A stretch of DNA of 64,000 nucleotides from IMG/VR virus record IMGVR_UViG_3300022666_000111; one strand, 5' to 3'. This document shows positions 3,528 through 63,149 of this stretch, piece by piece. Source of the stretch: a virus. Its lineage: Duplodnaviria > Caudoviricetes. Each line of letters starts with the position of its first letter. Position 1 is the first letter of the stretch. Position numbers and translations under genes: made by a program. The notes under the pieces are model-generated. The model had not been told where the DNA came from. It ran no database searches and worked only from the letters and a program-made list of their open reading frames with translations.

Positions 3528-4021
3528 GCCCACAAGGCTACGTCTTCATCGAATACAAACCTCCTCATGGAAAGCGACACGTGAAAAGCGTTACCTCGGT
3601 TCTCCGAAGCGTCATCTTCATGCTCAAGCCCCGTGTGGTGAACGTCAACCCCAAGGACGTCCCAGCCATCCGCCGCCAACGCTGGTTCGAGGTCAACACC
3701 CACAACGCTACCAACTACGGCCACGTGGGCTACGCCCTACAAACGCGAATCTACGCCAATACCACCGTCCCAAGAGGTCACGTCCACGGGGATACACGCC
3801 CTCAACCCCTAACCCAAGCCCAACGCGCCCTCCTAGAACGCGGCGTCGACGACGAAGCCCTCGCACACTACAAGAGCATCGCCCTACGCCAATGCGTCAA
3901 CCTCGGCTACGCCATACGTACACGCCCAGGAGGCTTCTACCGAACTACCCCAGCCGGTTGCCACGCCATCCAAACCTTCCCCGACGCCTACGCCAAACTC
4001 CTCTCCGGTGTAGACCTCTAA
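3524..4021 (+). CDS. hypothetical protein
   Basis: GTGA overlap with previous stop; ends DAYAKLLSGVDL. Confidence 0.6.
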   Translation: MSPQGYVFIEYKPPHGKRHVKSVTSVLRSVIFMLKPRVVNVNPKDVPAIRRQRWFEVNTHNATNYGHVGYALQTRIYANTTVPRGHVHGDTRPQPLTQAQRALLERGVDDEALAHYKSIALRQCVNLGYAIRTRPGGFYRTTPAGCHAIQTFPDAYAKLLSGVDL

Positions 4022-4666: not shown

Positions 4667-5002
4667 ATGGATACAGCCAACAGCTACCGCGAAGCCCGTG
4701 CCTGCCGCAAACTCGTCGCCAACGCCTCCATCAAAATCGAAGAGGCCACTCTCGACGGTACCACCTTCAGCCTCAAAATCCGCACCACCCTGGGTGCCAT
4801 CGTCGGCTACGGCAACGTCAACCCCGACGCCTGTAACGAAGGCTGGACCCTCAACGGTAAGCCTATCCCCATGAAGGACTGGCCCGACATCGACGTCGTC
4901 ACCCCACTGACCCCCAATACTGACGGCTACTGGCACCGCCTAAGTACCCTCGTCAGCCAACTCGAAGAATGGATCAACAACCTCGTGGAACGTCAAGGCT
5001 AG
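4667..5002 (+). CDS. hypothetical protein
   Basis: ATG 33 nt after TTGATC (4634). Confidence 0.6.
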   Translation: MDTANSYREARACRKLVANASIKIEEATLDGTTFSLKIRTTLGAIVGYGNVNPDACNEGWTLNGKPIPMKDWPDIDVVTPLTPNTDGYWHRLSTLVSQLEEWINNLVERQG

Positions 5003-5077
5003 ATCCCCAGATCGCCTTTGCCTACAACCCCCACCAGCCCATCTACAATCCCCAGATCACCTTTACCTACAACCCCC
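5003..5077. repeat. imperfect 30-bp direct repeat (ATCCCCAGATCRCCTTTRCCTACAACCCCC x2)
   Basis: copies at about 5003-5032 and 5048-5077. Confidence 0.8.
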
Positions 5078-9334: not shown

Positions 9335-10211
9335 GGTGAAGAACTACACCGTAGGGCCGAAGACGATCCTGCGGTAGGTCTTGATTGCTTCGGCGGCCAT
9401 GGTTCGAAACTCGTCCTTCTCGTGCTCCTCGAGGCTATCCCAGGGGGTTCGGGGGCGTCCGGTAGCGGCCAGGTAGTCCTCGTCGGACATGCCGCCGTCT
9501 ACGCGATAGATTGCCATTGCGACGCGGTCGTTGACGCTTGGCATCAGAAGGTCTCCGTCACGATGCGGACCTCGGGCGTCGCCCGGATGGTTTCGATGTC
9601 TCTACGGGTGGTGAGGGGGTTTCGTTCACGGGGGTCGGGGCGTGGGATGCTGGCGCCTTCGGGCCAGGTTTCAAGGGGCGGGACCCTAATGGTGATGCCG
9701 TAGAAGTAGCGGATGTTCTGGTAGGCGCCGTCTTCGTCGGTTTGGATGTAGCCGTCGACGGCGACGATGGGGCCGGGAGGGCCTTTGTAGTTTGGGCCGC
9801 AGGGGTAGATGCGGGCGTCTGGGCCAAGGACGCAGAGCGTGACTTCTGCTTTTTGCATGGGGGCGATCCGAATTTCCTTGAGAGGTTGAAGGAGATGCCG
9901 GGGAGCAGGACGCCGATGGCTTGGATGGACCCTGTCCAGAAGGATGCCGGTTTGCGAAGGTCCAGGTAGTAGCTTGGCCCGTCCGGGATGACGATCTTGT
10001 AGGTCCCTTCGATAGCGGGGATCAGGGTTTCATAGCTGCCGCGCTTGGGGATCGCTTTCCAGATCGACGTCCCGTCTCCGCAGGAGACCTTTCGGAGGAC
10101 CTCTCCGCTGGTATGCGGGTCGCGGGGAAAGATCACAACGGAGAGCGTTCGATCTTTGGCAGGGTTCAGGTGGAAGTTCTCGGGGGAGATGTTTACAATC
10201 ATGCTGATCTC

Positions 10212-10904: not shown

Positions 10905-12247
10905 GGGATCTCCTTGGCGAGGCGGAGGAGGGTTTCACGTTCGTTGAGGGAGGGGTCGTCGGTCACGGATTCGAGGAGTGCATTGAGGACGCGGCCGACG
11001 CGGGGGCCTGGGGCGATCCCGAGGGCCTCCATGACGTCGCGGCCGTTGATGACGAGGACCTTCGTGGAAGTTGGGATGGTCTCCGTCACGCTCATCCGTG
11101 CGACCCGATCGCGGAGGGCGTCGATGAGCGTCTCCTCCAGGGCGACCTTGGCGGGGCCTTTGCCGTCGATGTCTGCGTGGGCCAAGGTGCAGAAGTCGGG
11201 GACGTTGTCGAGCCCAACCTTGCGGACCCAGCGGCGGACGGCGGGGGCGCCGTGGTCAGCTTCGTAGCGGATGTAGTGGTGCCGCACGAAGTGAACGATC
11301 GCTTCCAAGTCTTCCGTGGCGAATCGCAGCCGGGTCAAGATCTCCCGCGTCATGTCAGCCCCTACGACCTCGTGGTTGTAGAAGGTTGCGTCTCCTGTCA
11401 CCGGGTGGGCCTCCTTCACGGCGGGCTTGCCGATGTCATGGAATAGGGCGGCGAAGCGCAGCAAGGGCTTCGTAGCCGGGACACGGTCAAGCGTAACCAA
11501 GGTGTGCTCCCACACGTCGAAGGCGTGGTACTTGTTCTGGGCGCACCCAAAGCTCGCCTTGAATTCCGGAATGAAGACCTCGAGCATCCCCGTCTCCGCC
11601 ATGACGCGGAAGGCGACCGAAGGCTTGACCGAGCCCTTCATGATCTTGAAGAGTTCGTCGTGGACGCGCTCGATCGAGACTTTCGAGAAGACTTCGAGGT
11701 TTGGGCGAATACCCTCGAGGGTCTCGGGTTCGATGCTGAAGCCCAGGGTTGCCGCGAATCGGGCGGCGCGCATGACGCGCAAGCCGTCCTCGTGGAACCT
11801 GCGGCGGGGGTCGCCTACGGCTCGGATGACTTTGTTTGCGATGTCGGCCATACCTCCGAAGGGGTCGACGGTTCGGTCGTCGATCGGGTCGTAGGCGATG
11901 GCGTTCATGGTGAAGTCGCGCCGGGCCAGGTCGTCTTCGATCCGGTCGAGGAAGCTCACAGCGTCGGGGCGTCGTCCGTCCGTGTAGTCCCCGTCCCCAC
12001 GGTACGTCGTCACCTCGAAACCGGTACCGTCCACGATGGCCGTCACGGTTCCATGTTGGATGCCGGTCAGGATGACACGGGGGAAAATGCGGAGCATGAC
12101 TTCTGGGCGGGCGTTGGTAGCGATGTCCCAGTCATGGGCTTCTCGGCCCATGATGAAGTCGCGGATAGCGCCACCGACCAGGAAGGCTTCGTAGCCCTCA
12201 CGGCGGAGGGTCTGGCAGATACGGAGTGCTTCGGGAGGGATTTGCAT
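10901..12247 (-). CDS. cca: CCA tRNA nucleotidyltransferase with HD domain
   Basis: LVGGAIRD, DWDIAT, DLARRDFTMNA, EDGLRVMRAARF, ALFHDIGK; ATG 33 nt after TTGATC. Confidence 0.93.
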   Translation of the reverse strand: MQIPPEALRICQTLRREGYEAFLVGGAIRDFIMGREAHDWDIATNARPEVMLRIFPRVILTGIQHGTVTAIVDGTGFEVTTYRGDGDYTDGRRPDAVSFLDRIEDDLARRDFTMNAIAYDPIDDRTVDPFGGMADIANKVIRAVGDPRRRFHEDGLRVMRAARFAATLGFSIEPETLEGIRPNLEVFSKVSIERVHDELFKIMKGSVKPSVAFRVMAETGMLEVFIPEFKASFGCAQNKYHAFDVWEHTLVTLDRVPATKPLLRFAALFHDIGKPAVKEAHPVTGDATFYNHEVVGADMTREILTRLRFATEDLEAIVHFVRHHYIRYEADHGAPAVRRWVRKVGLDNVPDFCTLAHADIDGKGPAKVALEETLIDALRDRVARMSVTETIPTSTKVLVINGRDVMEALGIAPGPRVGRVLNALLESVTDDPSLNERETLLRLAKEIP

Positions 12248-28490: not shown

Positions 28491-28956
28491 TGGTTCATGT
28501 CTCCGAGAGGTTTCTCTTCCGGGGCTGGTATGCCGGTGGGGTAGAGGGATCAACGTATTTGGGGTGGGGAAATGAATTTGACCGTGAAATCAGATGCTGT
28601 CTTGGCGATCATTGATGCAGAGGTATTGGGACCGAGGGCACCCAGAAAACCGTTGATCACGGAGCCCGTCCGGCATGTTGGGCACATGGAGAGCATCGAC
28701 TTCCAAATCGCAAGAATGGCCCAGGCTTTTGACCTTGGAATCAGCGACGAAGTCGCTGTGAGCATCCTGGCTAAGGATGACATCACGGGGGCCGCCGCCT
28801 TCTACATCATCCAGGCTGCGCACCTGCTATCAAACGATCGCGGGTGAATTCCCTGGCGCCAAGGTTCGGAACGGTGTAGGTAATGCCCGTGCCGTAACTT
28901 TGGCCCACACGGGCATGCTGGCAACACTTGGCGGCTTCGGCCGCATGGAGGATCAA

Positions 28957-30540
28957 ATGGCAAGCAAGATTCTGTTCCCAGGGGCGAAGCCGTCTGTTCA
29001 GGCGGCGGACACGGTCAACGAGGCGGGTGGGGCGGCGTACCAGATGACGCCAAAGATGGCCCTGGCTCAATTGGCGGTGACGGGGTGCCTGTCCAATACG
29101 TACTACGTGTCGGACAAGATGCAGCTCGAGGCCGTCTTGAACGCAGCCGTCGCGTGCGATCCGGAGTACGTTGCGAAGGTGGCGCTCTACGCACACGAGA
29201 AGGGCTTCATGAAGGACATGCCTGCGGTTCTTGCGGCCTACCTGGCTGCGATGAATGGGGCGCTCCTCGAGCCCATCTTCCCGCGTGTCATCAACAACGG
29301 CAAGATGCTCCGCAACTTCGTCCAGGTCATCCGGTCTGGCGCGTTGGGGCGCAAGAGCTTCGGAACGCGTCCGAAGAGGATGATCCAGAGCTGGTTCGAG
29401 AGCCGTAAGGACGGCGTGGTCTTCACGAACTCCACGGGTAACGATCCGTCGATGGCGGACGTTATCAAGCTCATCCGGCCGGTTCCGGGGACGGTGGAGC
29501 GTTCGGCGCTCTATGCCTACCTGCTTGGGAAGGACAAGTTCAAGTTCCAGGGGCAGGAGCTGGTGACGTCGGAGCATGTTCCGGAAGAGGTCAAGAGCTT
29601 CCTGGCATTCAAGGCGGACCCGGCCAAGGTTGCTGTCCCGGAGAAGGGTGTCCCCTTCGAGATGCTCGTCGGTGTTGAGGGCATCACGGAGAAGGGCTGG
29701 AAGCAGCTTGCGGAGAGGGCTACGTGGACGCAGCTCCGTATGAACCTCAACACGTTCCTGCGTCACGGGGTCTTCTCGGACAAGAGGCTCACCAAGAAGC
29801 TGGCCGACAAGCTCGGATCGGCGGAAGAGGTTGCGAAGGCACACTGCTTCCCCTACCAGCTCCTGGCGGCCTACAAGAACGTGGGTACGGAGATGCCCAC
29901 GGAGATCACCCTGGCGTTGCAGGACGCCTTGGAGGCTGCTACCAAGAACATCCCGGTGTTCGCGGGTTCGGTCGTGATTTGCCCGGACGTTTCGGGCTCC
30001 ATGTCAGCCTACGTCACGGGACGTCAGGGCAGCAAGACGCCTTCGAAGGTCACCTGCATTGACGTTGCAGCCTTGGTTGCAGCGAGCGTCTTGAGGACCA
30101 ACCAGACTGCGAGGGTCATCCCCTTCGAGCAGAGCGTGGTTGGCGTCAAGGTCAATCCTCGCGATTCGGTCATGACGAACGCGCAGAAGCTTTCGTCCAT
30201 CGGCGGAGGCGGGACCAACTGCTCGGCGCCCCTGGCCTTGCTCAACAAGGAGAACGCCGCGCCGGATGTGGTCATCTTCATCTCGGACTACGAGTCATGG
30301 GTTGATCGTGAGTACGGGCACGGTACTGGGATGCTCACGGAGTGGCAGCAGATCGTCAAGCGTAACCCCAAGGCCAAGCTGATCTGCATCGACGTGACGC
30401 CTTCGTCCACGCACCAGGTCCCAAGTCGTCCTGGGATCCTTCAGGTCGGCGGGTTCTCGGACGAGGTCTTCAACGTCATCGGGGCCTTCGTCTCCGGCGA
30501 CGCCTCGAGTTGGGTTGCCTCGATCGAATCCTACAAATAG
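28957..30540 (+). CDS. Ro60/Rsr TROVE-vWA RNA-binding protein
   Basis: NEAGGAAY, LAQLAVTGC, MKDMPA, MLRNFVQ, LRMNLNTFLRHG, FPYQL, vWA DVSGSM, GGGTNC, SDYESW. Confidence 0.93.
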   Translation: MASKILFPGAKPSVQAADTVNEAGGAAYQMTPKMALAQLAVTGCLSNTYYVSDKMQLEAVLNAAVACDPEYVAKVALYAHEKGFMKDMPAVLAAYLAAMNGALLEPIFPRVINNGKMLRNFVQVIRSGALGRKSFGTRPKRMIQSWFESRKDGVVFTNSTGNDPSMADVIKLIRPVPGTVERSALYAYLLGKDKFKFQGQELVTSEHVPEEVKSFLAFKADPAKVAVPEKGVPFEMLVGVEGITEKGWKQLAERATWTQLRMNLNTFLRHGVFSDKRLTKKLADKLGSAEEVAKAHCFPYQLLAAYKNVGTEMPTEITLALQDALEAATKNIPVFAGSVVICPDVSGSMSAYVTGRQGSKTPSKVTCIDVAALVAASVLRTNQTARVIPFEQSVVGVKVNPRDSVMTNAQKLSSIGGGGTNCSAPLALLNKENAAPDVVIFISDYESWVDREYGHGTGMLTEWQQIVKRNPKAKLICIDVTPSSTHQVPSRPGILQVGGFSDEVFNVIGAFVSGDASSWVASIESYK

Positions 30541-54623: not shown

Positions 54624-54694
54624 GGTCCCATCGACTAGCGGTAGGTCACCACCCTTTCAAGGTGTGAACACGGGTTCGATTCCCGTTGGGATCG
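54624..54694 (+). tRNA. tRNA-Glu(UUC)
   Basis: cloverleaf; loop CTTTCAA. Confidence 0.9.
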
Positions 54695-54698
54695 CTAT

Positions 54699-54992: not shown

Positions 54993-55144
54993 TGCGACGA
55001 ATGCTTGTGAGGATTACATTCCCTTCTAAGGACGTGGACCCTGTTCGAATCAGGGCTGGGGCACCAAGGCGCAAGCCTAGCAACATGCCTCGGAGGTGTA
55101 CTGGCTGCACACGAAAACAGTCTTCGCGCCTCTTTGTCGTCGCA
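54993..55144 (+). ncRNA. Y-RNA-like element Y4 (permuted tRNA-Arg(UCU) cargo)
   Basis: TGCGACGA-ATG...CTTCTAA, T-arm, CTGGGGC-ACCA, linker, GCCTCGG, D-arm...TTTG-TCGTCGCA. Confidence 0.8.
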
Positions 55145-55149
55145 ACAAC

Positions 55150-55377
55150 TTCACCGAATGCCTTGAGGGTCTACACTCAAATGAGGCCGGTTTCGTTCAA
55201 GAGCTGGTGCTATGTTGGTGGCACCGAGTCAACACGCAGTAGCTTTGACTCCCAGAGGGTGGGCTTAGAGGCAGCCATCCCTTAAAGAAAGCGTAGCAGC
55301 TCACTGGGATAGCCAGACGTGAAGGCCGCTCTTGGCCGGACTGGTTTAACACTGACTCTCGCACATTTGTCGGTGGA
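55150..55377 (+). ncRNA. Y-RNA-like element Y5 carrying a 23S rRNA L11-binding domain mimic
   Basis: TTCACCGA-ATG...GAGGGTC-TACAC...GACTCTC...TTTG-TCGGTGGA. Confidence 0.75.
55251..55308 (+). other. 58-nt mimic of 23S rRNA H43/H44 (nt 1051-1108)
   Basis: CCCAGAGGGTGGGCTTAGAGGCAGCCATCCCTTAAAGAAAGCGTAGCAGCTCACTGGG. Confidence 0.88.
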
Positions 55378-55411
55378 AAGGGCCAACCTCCCAACAAGGG
55401 CAGGCCCACAT

Positions 55412-55487
55412 CGGGGTGATGGCTTGTTGGTAAGCCGCCAGTTTTGGGTACTGGAACTTGGGGGTTCGACTCCCCCCATCCCGACCA
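55412..55487 (+). tRNA. tRNA-Pro(UGG)
   Basis: cloverleaf; loop TTTGGGT; encoded CCA. Confidence 0.85.
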
Positions 55488-55628: not shown

Positions 55629-56027
55629 ATGGAAAGCATCAAGACTACCGTAACCAACCTCACCAACGACCTCATCGCCAACGTATCCAAGGCGGACACC
55701 CGCGATTGGTACGAGGATAAGCCCTCTTGGGAAGAGATGATGTCCTTGCGCGACCGGCTCTACATTGAATCCGACTCGGTCGAAGCCACAAGAAAGTATC
55801 TCGAGGCATCCATAGTAAACCTTGAGGATCTCGACGGTATGGATCCCCTCGCGGATCTCTTGTGTCAAGCGCACGCCTTGGCCCCCTCCCTTGCGGATAT
55901 GGTTGTCACGATCAAGGCGACCCTGACGCTACTTGCGGCTGAAATCGACGCGATCGAAGACGCTATGGAGACCGTTCGCAAGGCTTACGCGCACCTTCCC
56001 GAGGGTGCAGGTTCCGATACCAACTAA
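55629..56027 (+). CDS. hypothetical protein
   Basis: ATG 33 nt after TTGATC (55596). Confidence 0.6.
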   Translation: MESIKTTVTNLTNDLIANVSKADTRDWYEDKPSWEEMMSLRDRLYIESDSVEATRKYLEASIVNLEDLDGMDPLADLLCQAHALAPSLADMVVTIKATLTLLAAEIDAIEDAMETVRKAYAHLPEGAGSDTN

Positions 56028-57682: not shown

Positions 57683-57766
57683 GTACTGGTGGTGGAATGG
57701 TAGACACGCACCGTAGAAGGTGTGCCGCTTGCAACGGCTTTGGGGGTTCAACTCCCCTCCAGTATT
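57683..57766 (+). tRNA. tRNA-Leu(UAG)-like with shortened anticodon loop
   Basis: Leu-type D-arm and variable arm; GCACC-GTAGAA-GGTGT. Confidence 0.55.
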
Positions 57767-57773
57767 CAGAGAC

Positions 57774-62696: not shown

Positions 62697-62779
62697 GGGG
62701 CCGTAGCTCACATGGCGGGAGCAACCACCGGAATGATCAACCGGGCGGAAGGGGAAAGGTTCAATTCCTTTCGGCTCCA
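62697..62779 (+). tRNA. tRNA-Ala-like with aberrant anticodon arm
   Basis: GGGGCCG/CGGCTCC-A acceptor; CCGG-AATGATCAA-CCGG. Confidence 0.55.
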
Positions 62780-63149
62780 CCGAAGATGGCCGCAAGTTCA
62801 CGGTCGGAAACGCCCACGTTGTTGGGCGCCGTAGGCTTGCCGATGTCAATTGCTTCGATCGCGCGGGCCTCTTCCTCGGAGAGCCCCATACCATCAAGCT
62901 GCTCAAAGCGCGCCTGACGACGGCAATCAAGAAACACACGGGTCGCAATCTTGCTTTGCTTGACCCCAAAGTAGCTGGATAGGAAGTGTAGGAACCGCTC
63001 GAAGTCCTCCATGAACGCGATGCATTCAGATTCTGGCGCGCCCGTTTGGATTCGAAGCTCTCTAGCTTGCTTGAGCAAACCCTTGTGCATGATAAGACCT
63101 TGCAAGTCGTTCCCTAAGTCTACACCGTCCAGGTGTAGGAGAGGTGGTC

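Follow-up and report, generated by a model that had tools for sequence, protein, structure and literature searches.

Genomic context and scaffold of Y5

The stretch of DNA analysed here (hereafter the window; 64,000 nucleotides (nt)) is part of a 341,404-bp phage genome of about 0.6 GC, represented by IMG/VR record IMGVR_UViG_3300022666_000111. It carries 28 tRNA calls by ARAGORN, genes for a CCA-adding enzyme and an orthologue of Ro60, and several Y-RNA-like elements, one of which, Y5, holds the segment described below (Table 1). ARAGORN labels as SeC a tRNA with anticodon UCA that lies between tRNA-Ser and tRNA-Phe (54624-54695), and reports two tRNA-like genes with a two-base 'anticodon' (57683-57767 and 62697-62781). 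Unlike the other Y elements here, Y5 is preceded by a Y (Y4, ending at 55144) instead of a tRNA, and a 34-nt spacer (AAAGGGCCAACC...CCCACAUC, 55378-55411) separates it from tRNA-Pro(UGG). The neighbouring open reading frame (ORF; 55629-56027) is an orphan found in one contig only. Neither a ribosomal protein (r-protein) gene near the element nor an Rfam r-protein leader match was found. A megablast search of INPHARED with 12 kb of the window gave no match, and our first IMG/VR pattern scan did not return the window.

Table 1 Features of the Y5 locus and of the phage Ro60 gene, in window coordinates
Feature	Position	Strand	Basis or remarks
Phage Ro60 orthologue, presumed partner of the Y scaffolds	28777..30540	+	Pfam vWA_Ro60 1.7e-20, weak TROVE; phrog_850 1.5e-35
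Y5, whole Y-RNA-like element (228 nt), scaffold and cargo	55150..55377	+	Helices 1 and 2 flank the cargo; ends pair in the MFE fold
Helix 1, 5' strand TTCACCGA, overlapping candidate Ro60-binding motif ACCGAAUG	55150..55160	+	8 bp with 55370-55377
Helix 2, 5' strand TGAGGGTC, and conserved TACAC	55164..55176	+	8 bp with 55354-55361
Inner stem P3, 5' strand, carrying the cargo	55186..55204	+	Pairs with 55328-55345 (MFE and GAC-constrained folds)
Predicted side hairpin of the cargo	55206..55225	+	MFE fold
23S-like segment: H42 tip, H43 and H44 (GTPase-associated centre)	55242..55313	+	RF02541; family model R1
H43 (nt 1057-1081)	55257..55281	+	U1060 at 55260, G1061 at 55261, A1067 at 55267, G1070 at 55270
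H44 (nt 1087-1102), uninterrupted	55287..55302	+	A1088 at 55288, A1095 at 55295
Inner stem P3, 3' strand	55328..55345	+	MFE and GAC-constrained folds
3' scaffold: helix 2 3' strand GACTCTCG, CACATTTG, helix 1 3' strand TCGGTGGA	55354..55377	+	
tRNA-Pro(UGG), 34 nt downstream of Y5, likely 3' processing landmark	55412..55487	+	ARAGORN, Rfam

Y5 is built in a regular order: helix 1 (TTCACCGA/TCGGTGGA), GAATG, helix 2 (TGAGGGTC/GACTCTCG), TACAC, the cargo and CACATTTG. The same plan recurs with covarying helices in the paralogues Y1, Y3, Y4, Y6, Y8 and Y9, which also have the GAATG, TACAC and TTTG motifs in common with Y5. The terminal helix of Y5 is 8 bp long, and ACCGAAUG agrees at seven of eight positions with GNCGAAN0-1G, which has been proposed as the Rsr/Ro60 site in bacterial Y RNAs (PMC4201824), but does not make up the full motif. 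The Rfam YrlA and YrlB models gave no match on Y5 at E<=5 and weak matches on the paralogues Y8 (35.8 bits, GA 69) and Y6 (22.9 bits, GA 97). No tRNA-like domain was called within 55150-55377 by ARAGORN or Rfam; the cargo is instead rRNA-like.

A copy of the GTPase-associated centre in Y5

When all of the window was scanned with the Rfam 15 models at their gathering thresholds, 24 tRNA matches and only one other were obtained. The latter is LSU_rRNA_bacteria (RF02541) at 55242-55313 on the plus strand (62.1 bits, above the gathering score of 50 bits; E 5.8e-16). Only positions 1083-1154 of the 2925 spanned by the model are matched, and we therefore reject a 23S rRNA gene. Full-length LSU rRNA around the element was absent by Rfam and ARAGORN, the flanks consisting of the Y scaffold and tRNAs. 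The 58-nt core lies at 55251-55308, where the original prediction had placed it, and corresponds to the L11-binding domain (E. coli nt 1051-1108) of structures 1HC8 and 1MMS. The E. coli string given in that prediction is identical to nt 1051-1108 of Salmonella LT2 23S rRNA, and the ungapped identity of 47/58 claimed for the core was reproduced against this sequence. That the match ends exactly with H43/H44 and has no flanking rRNA was right for the domain and for everything beyond the match, but the match itself extends over 72 nt and adds the H42 tip: 9 nt upstream and 5 nt downstream of the core are H42-like (GCUUUGACU and AUAGC), agreeing with the Rfam consensus at 7/9 and 3/5 positions, respectively.

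The core differs from Salmonella 23S at nt 1051, 1056, 1057, 1058, 1061, 1070, 1080, 1081, 1096, 1097 and 1108. As predicted, three pairs carry compensatory changes, namely 1051:1108 (G.U to C-G), 1057:1081 (A-U to G-C) and 1058:1080 (U-A to G-C), and with these the window copy has standard pairs at all 16 positions checked (the Rfam consensus pairs plus 1090:1101). The 1082:1086 pair is present. A1067 (55267) and A1095 (55295), which the prediction had listed as kept, are indeed unchanged, as are U1060, A1088, G1071 and C1072, the set together comprising tertiary and uL11-contact bases.

The minimum free energy fold predicted for the isolated 58-mer consists of the closing stem, H43 and H44. 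In the fold predicted for full-length Y5, a 7-bp hairpin (about 55226-55251) beats the GTPase-associated centre (GAC) closing stem by about 11 kcal/mol in a nearest-neighbour calculation that ignores GAC tertiary, Mg2+ and protein stabilisation. The GAC module is modelled as mounted on the P3 stem (55186-55204/55328-55345) and short H42-like pairs.

Comparison with cellular 23S rRNA

For comparison with real 23S rRNA, we scanned one genome per species for the G1070 variant, obtaining over 120 genes, of which 119 cores were compared. In this sample, drawn largely from bacteria and skewed towards G1070 (G1061 is the consensus in archaea), the best match to the phage core was 51/58, and all 119 cores differed from it at 7 or more of 58 positions. 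A1056 occurred in 3 of the 119 and G1061 in 1, with neither G1096 nor G1057:C1081 found in any. On these comparisons, the window copy is not a recent copy of any sampled 23S. Over nt 1056-1103, a Pacearchaeota 23S is 44/48 identical to the window copy and a phage homologue, L134 (see below), 45/48, so that no donor can be named by identity alone.

A family of split GAC RNAs in phages

Searches of IMG/VR revealed that at least 150 phage loci carry a GAC core split by an insert of 59-336 nt between nt 1090 and 1091 (split-GAC RNAs; examples are L134 and the IMG/VR loci L137-L329), and all family counts given here are lower bounds. A scan with the H43 loop and stem returned at least 83 loci, almost none of them 23S genes and about 80 with the element, and a scan anchored on the H44 side returned at least 119, mostly new, with an H43-like hairpin upstream in 100 of the 109 unique loci listed. 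Split members share a layout in which H43 and UUUAAAGAGU precede 59-336 variable nt, after which come GCGUARYAGC-ACA and a strand that complements the 5' flank. The nine closing pairs of the resulting helix, P1, are 87.5% paired, compared with 48.4 +/- 2.1% after shuffling of partners. Pair 1058:1080 occurs as G-C (35), U-A (27), A-U (20) and C-G (4), and pair 1082:1086 as U-A (47), C-G (25) and A-U (10); double changes are found in the upper H43 stem, and RNAalifold reports compensatory changes in 13/21 pairs, the insert base included. Covariation in these alignments supports every family helix.

Conservation values within the search pattern are ascertainment-biased, a bias that the H44-anchored set was made to lessen, and with this qualification the bases of the tertiary fold are close to invariant: U1060 (100/100) and C1072 are conserved at 100%, G1071 and U1066 at 99%, A1073 at 98% and A1077 at 97%. 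A1088, which pairs with U1060, is near-invariant too, at 84-94%. Among exposed loop bases, A1069 is conserved at 96%, A1067 at 86% and G1068 at 82%. Like cellular rRNA (PMC6239185), the family varies freely at position 1061.

The loci range from 0.34 to 0.65 GC. Of the first 49, 36 hold tRNA genes, nearly all on the strand of the element, and in 22 the element lies within 60 nt of a tRNA. Across the same 49 loci, no protein family recurs within +/-4 kb. No uL11 gene was found in the 49 element-bearing phage records, so any uL11 partner would be that of the host. Ro60 is encoded in 8 of the 49 records and in 4 of 16 that are near-complete, and no Y scaffold was seen at the elements of seven inspected Ro60-positive records or of L216, all of which have plain P1 helices. 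With few records encoding Ro60 and eight checked elements free of a Y scaffold, the GAC module does not generally need Ro60. L216 had been considered as a Y scaffold with H43 only and was rejected, being an ordinary split member (P1 GAACTGG/CCAGTTC). Conversely, both CM and pattern searches failed to find the LSU-like element in ten Ro60-encoding viral relatives (Ro60 42-51% identical to that of the window), and the element therefore does not simply travel with the Ro60 clade. The original prediction had counted absence from related phages against itself; homologues occur in many phages, in independent contigs and in cultured genomes.

Unannotated copies were identified in the cultured phages pf16 (host Pseudomonas), GAP32 (Cronobacter), CBB (Pectobacterium), XacN1 (Xanthomonas), UNO-G1W1, Milchi, Astolliot, Aeromonas 4_4572 and Paenibacillus Pd_22F. 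Rfam 15 has no family at split-GAC sites, and a typical split member scores only 23 bits on the Rfam LSU model, under its threshold. We found no published description of a split-GAC RNA in a search that covered few subscription journals, so that an earlier description is possible; the XacN1 paper does not mention the element. A family 17-mer searched in 401 genomes of one bacterial class (around Enterobacter mori) matched twice, which is about chance.

The inserts are variable, but each closes with a helix, after which a YUUUG-type linker leads to G1091, and one subgroup (L134, L142, L168, L169, L181 and L201) has GGCACCCCG-NANNC-NGGUAAGGCY near the insert 3' end. AGUA/GAA-type motifs are visible by eye; a sarcin-ricin loop (SRL) mimic within the inserts was considered and rejected, since the Rfam LSU models matched nothing in the two inserts examined.

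Several loci hold further features. In L151 (IMGVR_UViG_3300047563_000094; 15.8-kb contig) there are two full copies (2696-2898 and 4756-5059) and one partial copy (3898-3922). The XacN1 member (L219; AP018399.1, about 150.2-150.6 kb) fills a 360-nt gap directly downstream of an annotated 2'-5' RNA ligase gene, which hints at a link with RNA-repair functions. A bacterial RNase P RNA of class A, complete and scoring 263.7 bits (9376-9703, minus strand), lies in an array of about 36 tRNAs in L137 (IMGVR_UViG_3300027313_000002), a locus that also has a split-GAC element, and a HEARO RNA (133 bits; 11348-11572, minus strand) shares the viral contig L161 with another. Finally, L001 (IMGVR_UViG_3300016717_001053), a 4.4-kb AT-rich 'viral' contig, begins with genuine-looking 23S sequence that continues past H44 (1-170) before phage-like coding sequence, and could represent a chimera or the end of a provirus next to rRNA.

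Relationship of the window copy to the family

Among the matches listed, the window copy is the only uninterrupted one and the only one in a Y scaffold. Between the positions that correspond to 55290 and 55291, every family member analysed has an insert and the window copy has none. A1056, G1057:C1081, G1061 and G1096 are found both in the window copy and in family members, of which (n = 49) 23 have A1056, 16 have G1061, 16 have G1096 and 3 have a non-A:U pair at 1057:1081. Its H44 stem, in contrast, has A1089, A1090 and U1101 as in rRNA, whereas the family has G1089, U1090 and A1101, with the 1090:1101 pair flipped; the A1090:U1101 state of the window copy occurs in none of the 49. Judged by these diagnostic states, the window copy is a mosaic of a family-type H43 side and H44 loop with an rRNA-type H44 stem, a pattern that both insert loss and conversion against host rRNA would fit.

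A family model (R1, a CM built from 26 split members with the window and L134 left out) scores the window copy at 47.5 bits, its only significant match in the window, true split members at 63-113 bits and real 23S GACs at 40-60 bits. We rejected R1 as a membership test because real 23S GACs score like the window copy, and descent from the phage lineage thus rests on the diagnostic states, the match to L134 and the genomic context. L134, a 62-kb contig of 0.675 GC with a tRNA array, was recovered by one metagenome scan for the phage-specific H43. Its element lies between tRNA-Ala and tRNA-Pro(UGG), has a 111-nt insert between 1090 and 1091 and shares A1056, G1057:C1081, G1058:C1080, G1061, G1070 and the H44 loop GUAGCA with the window copy, with compensatory changes at 1051:1108 and 1054:1105. 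A stretch of 37 nt (55252-55288) is 97% identical between the two, with most of H43 fully identical, and tRNA-Pro(UGG) follows the element in both. No protein similarity between L134 and the window was found in 11.8 kb, and the case for L134 as an orthologous locus is weakened, the two having in common no more than the H43 stretch of 37 nt and the tRNA-Pro(UGG) that follows.

Proposed function and alternative explanations

We regard it as strongly supported that the segment is a selected mimic of the uL11-binding GAC and not a chimera, because every helix is kept, the U1060-A1088 pair is present and a phage family shows covariation in every helix, and because a single folding domain is framed precisely by complementary strands of a scaffold that recurs elsewhere in the array. 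That Y5 holds a real, selected GAC-mimic RNA module is, in our judgement, very probable.

In the explanation that we favour, Y5 would be a non-coding RNA transcribed with the phage tRNA array, its paired ends forming a Y-RNA-type scaffold that presumably docks the phage's own Ro60. The cargo would be an intact, autonomously folding copy of the GAC (H43/H44 and the H42 tip) from a large lineage of phage GAC mimics, here free of an insert and carried on a Y scaffold instead. The module would take on the GAC tertiary fold and bind free host uL11 through its U1060-A1088 surface, and uL11 could then be sequestered or, in the window phage, tethered to Ro60, away from ribosome assembly. RelA activation depends on uL11, and a plausible pay-off would be that this activation is blunted as phage tRNAs flood the cell. 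Taken as a whole chain, from scaffold and fold to uL11 capture and pay-off, we consider this explanation slightly more probable than its opposite. We infer folding in vivo, the binding of uL11 and Ro60, and the physiological pay-off. Of the functions that the original prediction proposed, namely a decoy for uL11, for RelA sensing, for thiopeptides or for defence enzymes, uL11 binding is the best founded: the C-terminal domain of uL11 reads the U1060-A1088 pair, which hydrogen-bonds Gly130-Thr131 (PMC2175356), E. coli L11 tolerates even the yeast GAR, and uL11 binds isolated 58-60-nt RNAs with altered closing stems, such changes being routine in L11-binding constructs. A RelA or stringent-response pay-off is pure conjecture on our part, and the reading as a thiopeptide sponge is weakened by the variation of A1067 in 14% of family members.

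A broader proposal, that many phage lineages deploy free-standing, trans-acting GAC copies to capture uL11 or another stalk-base ligand, with the copy here mounted on a Y scaffold, is in our view possible yet somewhat short of probable; such RNAs, co-expressed with tRNA arrays, would reprogramme translation control, for example by silencing RelA.

Two artefactual or neutral origins can be weighed against a selected module. An assembly chimera or contamination with rRNA reads might be suspected, given how abundant rRNA is in metagenomes and that only one assembly is known to contain the contig, but just 72 nt are rRNA-like, they sit exactly between complementary helix strands inside a repeated scaffold, their sequence matches none of the sampled 23S, and homologues exist in independent contigs and cultured phage genomes, all of which makes this origin hardly credible. 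It is also very improbable that host 23S sequence was captured, by recombination or by reverse transcription, and that the copy has since drifted neutrally as an inert relic. Such an origin would agree with an H44 that is the most rRNA-like part of the copy (A1089, A1090 and U1101), with the retention of part of the H42 tip and with the inability of R1 to tell the copy from real 23S. However, three pairs, all of them kept, account for 6 of the 11 changes relative to enterobacterial 23S, the copy stands 7 or more of 58 positions apart from each of the 119 sampled 23S, rare states are common to it and its phage homologues, and its ends coincide with a folding domain extended by complementary flanks.

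If the module is selected, its role might still differ from uL11 capture. The GAC fold could act without any ligand in trans, stabilising or punctuating polycistronic tRNA transcripts, as the 22/49 elements within 60 nt of a tRNA, the nearly uniform strand of the tRNAs and the highly variable inserts would suggest. We think this improbable, as a generic stable hairpin would do for that purpose, and as it leaves unexplained both the near-invariance of exposed and uL11-contacting bases across loci of 0.34 to 0.65 GC and the mounting of the module on a Ro60 scaffold in the window phage. A less remote alternative, though still an unlikely one even with all candidates pooled, is that the RNA acts as a decoy or handle not for uL11 but for another GAC ligand, which may be a translational GTPase (EF-G, EF-Tu, IF2 or RF3), RelA, the A-site tRNA elbow, an A1067-directed rRNA methyltransferase or a host defence enzyme that attacks the stalk base. 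The loop bases facing factors, tRNA and drugs (A1069, A1067 and G1068) are conserved, as noted above, and the constant link to tRNA genes would suit a tRNA- or translation-related ligand. In addition, U1061 and A1070, which form the stack on which Tsr depends (PMC2719339), are both changed to G in the window copy. On the other side, the family has no conserved protein gene alongside it. Factors normally require the SRL and the L7/L12 stalk as well for binding, and an SRL-like element was absent from the two inserts examined. We know of no nuclease or toxin that targets H43/H44, and none was found in the literature searched.

Significance and comparison with known systems

A selected, near-literal copy of a functional rRNA centre in phages would add a new class to the viral non-coding RNAs, and it points to a new phage route to the factor-binding and stringent-response hub of the ribosome. 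The split-GAC family has been unannotated until now. If the broader proposal is true, Y5 would be the first Y RNA with an rRNA-mimicking effector and would link Ro60 directly to a ribosomal protein. The effector side of bacterial Y RNAs, long puzzling, would gain a concrete and testable ligand in uL11. As the family is present in cultured, tractable phages (XacN1, GAP32, CBB, pf16, UNO-G1W1 and Aeromonas 4_4572), its biology is testable now. Split members fall under the Rfam LSU threshold and the unsplit one would be flagged as an 'rRNA fragment', which calls for a dedicated annotation model.

Compared with the GAC of 23S rRNA (E. coli nt 1051-1108), the window copy has the same helices, loops and tertiary-contact bases, but it carries A1056, G1096 and a lower H43 rich in G-C, its surface stack has G at both 1061 and 1070, and it is a 72-nt segment within a phage non-coding RNA and not part of an rRNA gene. 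With the split-GAC RNAs it shares the core, the states A1056, G1061, G1070 and G1096 and location on the tRNA strand; those RNAs differ in their 59-336-nt insert, U1090:A1101 and plain P1, and the eight checked are without a Y scaffold.

Messenger RNA leaders of r-protein genes are cis-regulatory, and the L10 leader mimics the L10(L12)4 site next to the GAC. The principle is shared, in that an extra-ribosomal RNA copies the binding site of an r-protein, but the leaders precede r-protein genes and imitate the rRNA structure loosely, whereas the window element reproduces rRNA almost to the letter, in a phage, and has no r-protein gene close by. To our knowledge, rRNA mimicry has so far been described as cis-regulatory, in r-protein mRNAs, and the known phage and bacterial Y RNAs mimic tRNA. 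Y5 resembles the characterised Y RNAs (YrlA, RF02553; YrlB, RF02565; Chen et al. 2014, PMC4201824) in a genome that encodes Ro60, in its paired ends, in a CGAAUG that is similar to GNCGAAN0-1G and in its modular build of scaffold and effector, the non-scaffold module of Y RNAs being thought to bring a partner to Ro60. It differs from them in its length (228 nt, compared with 80-130 nt), in lying 25 kb from the Ro60 gene and in an effector that mimics rRNA, not tRNA.
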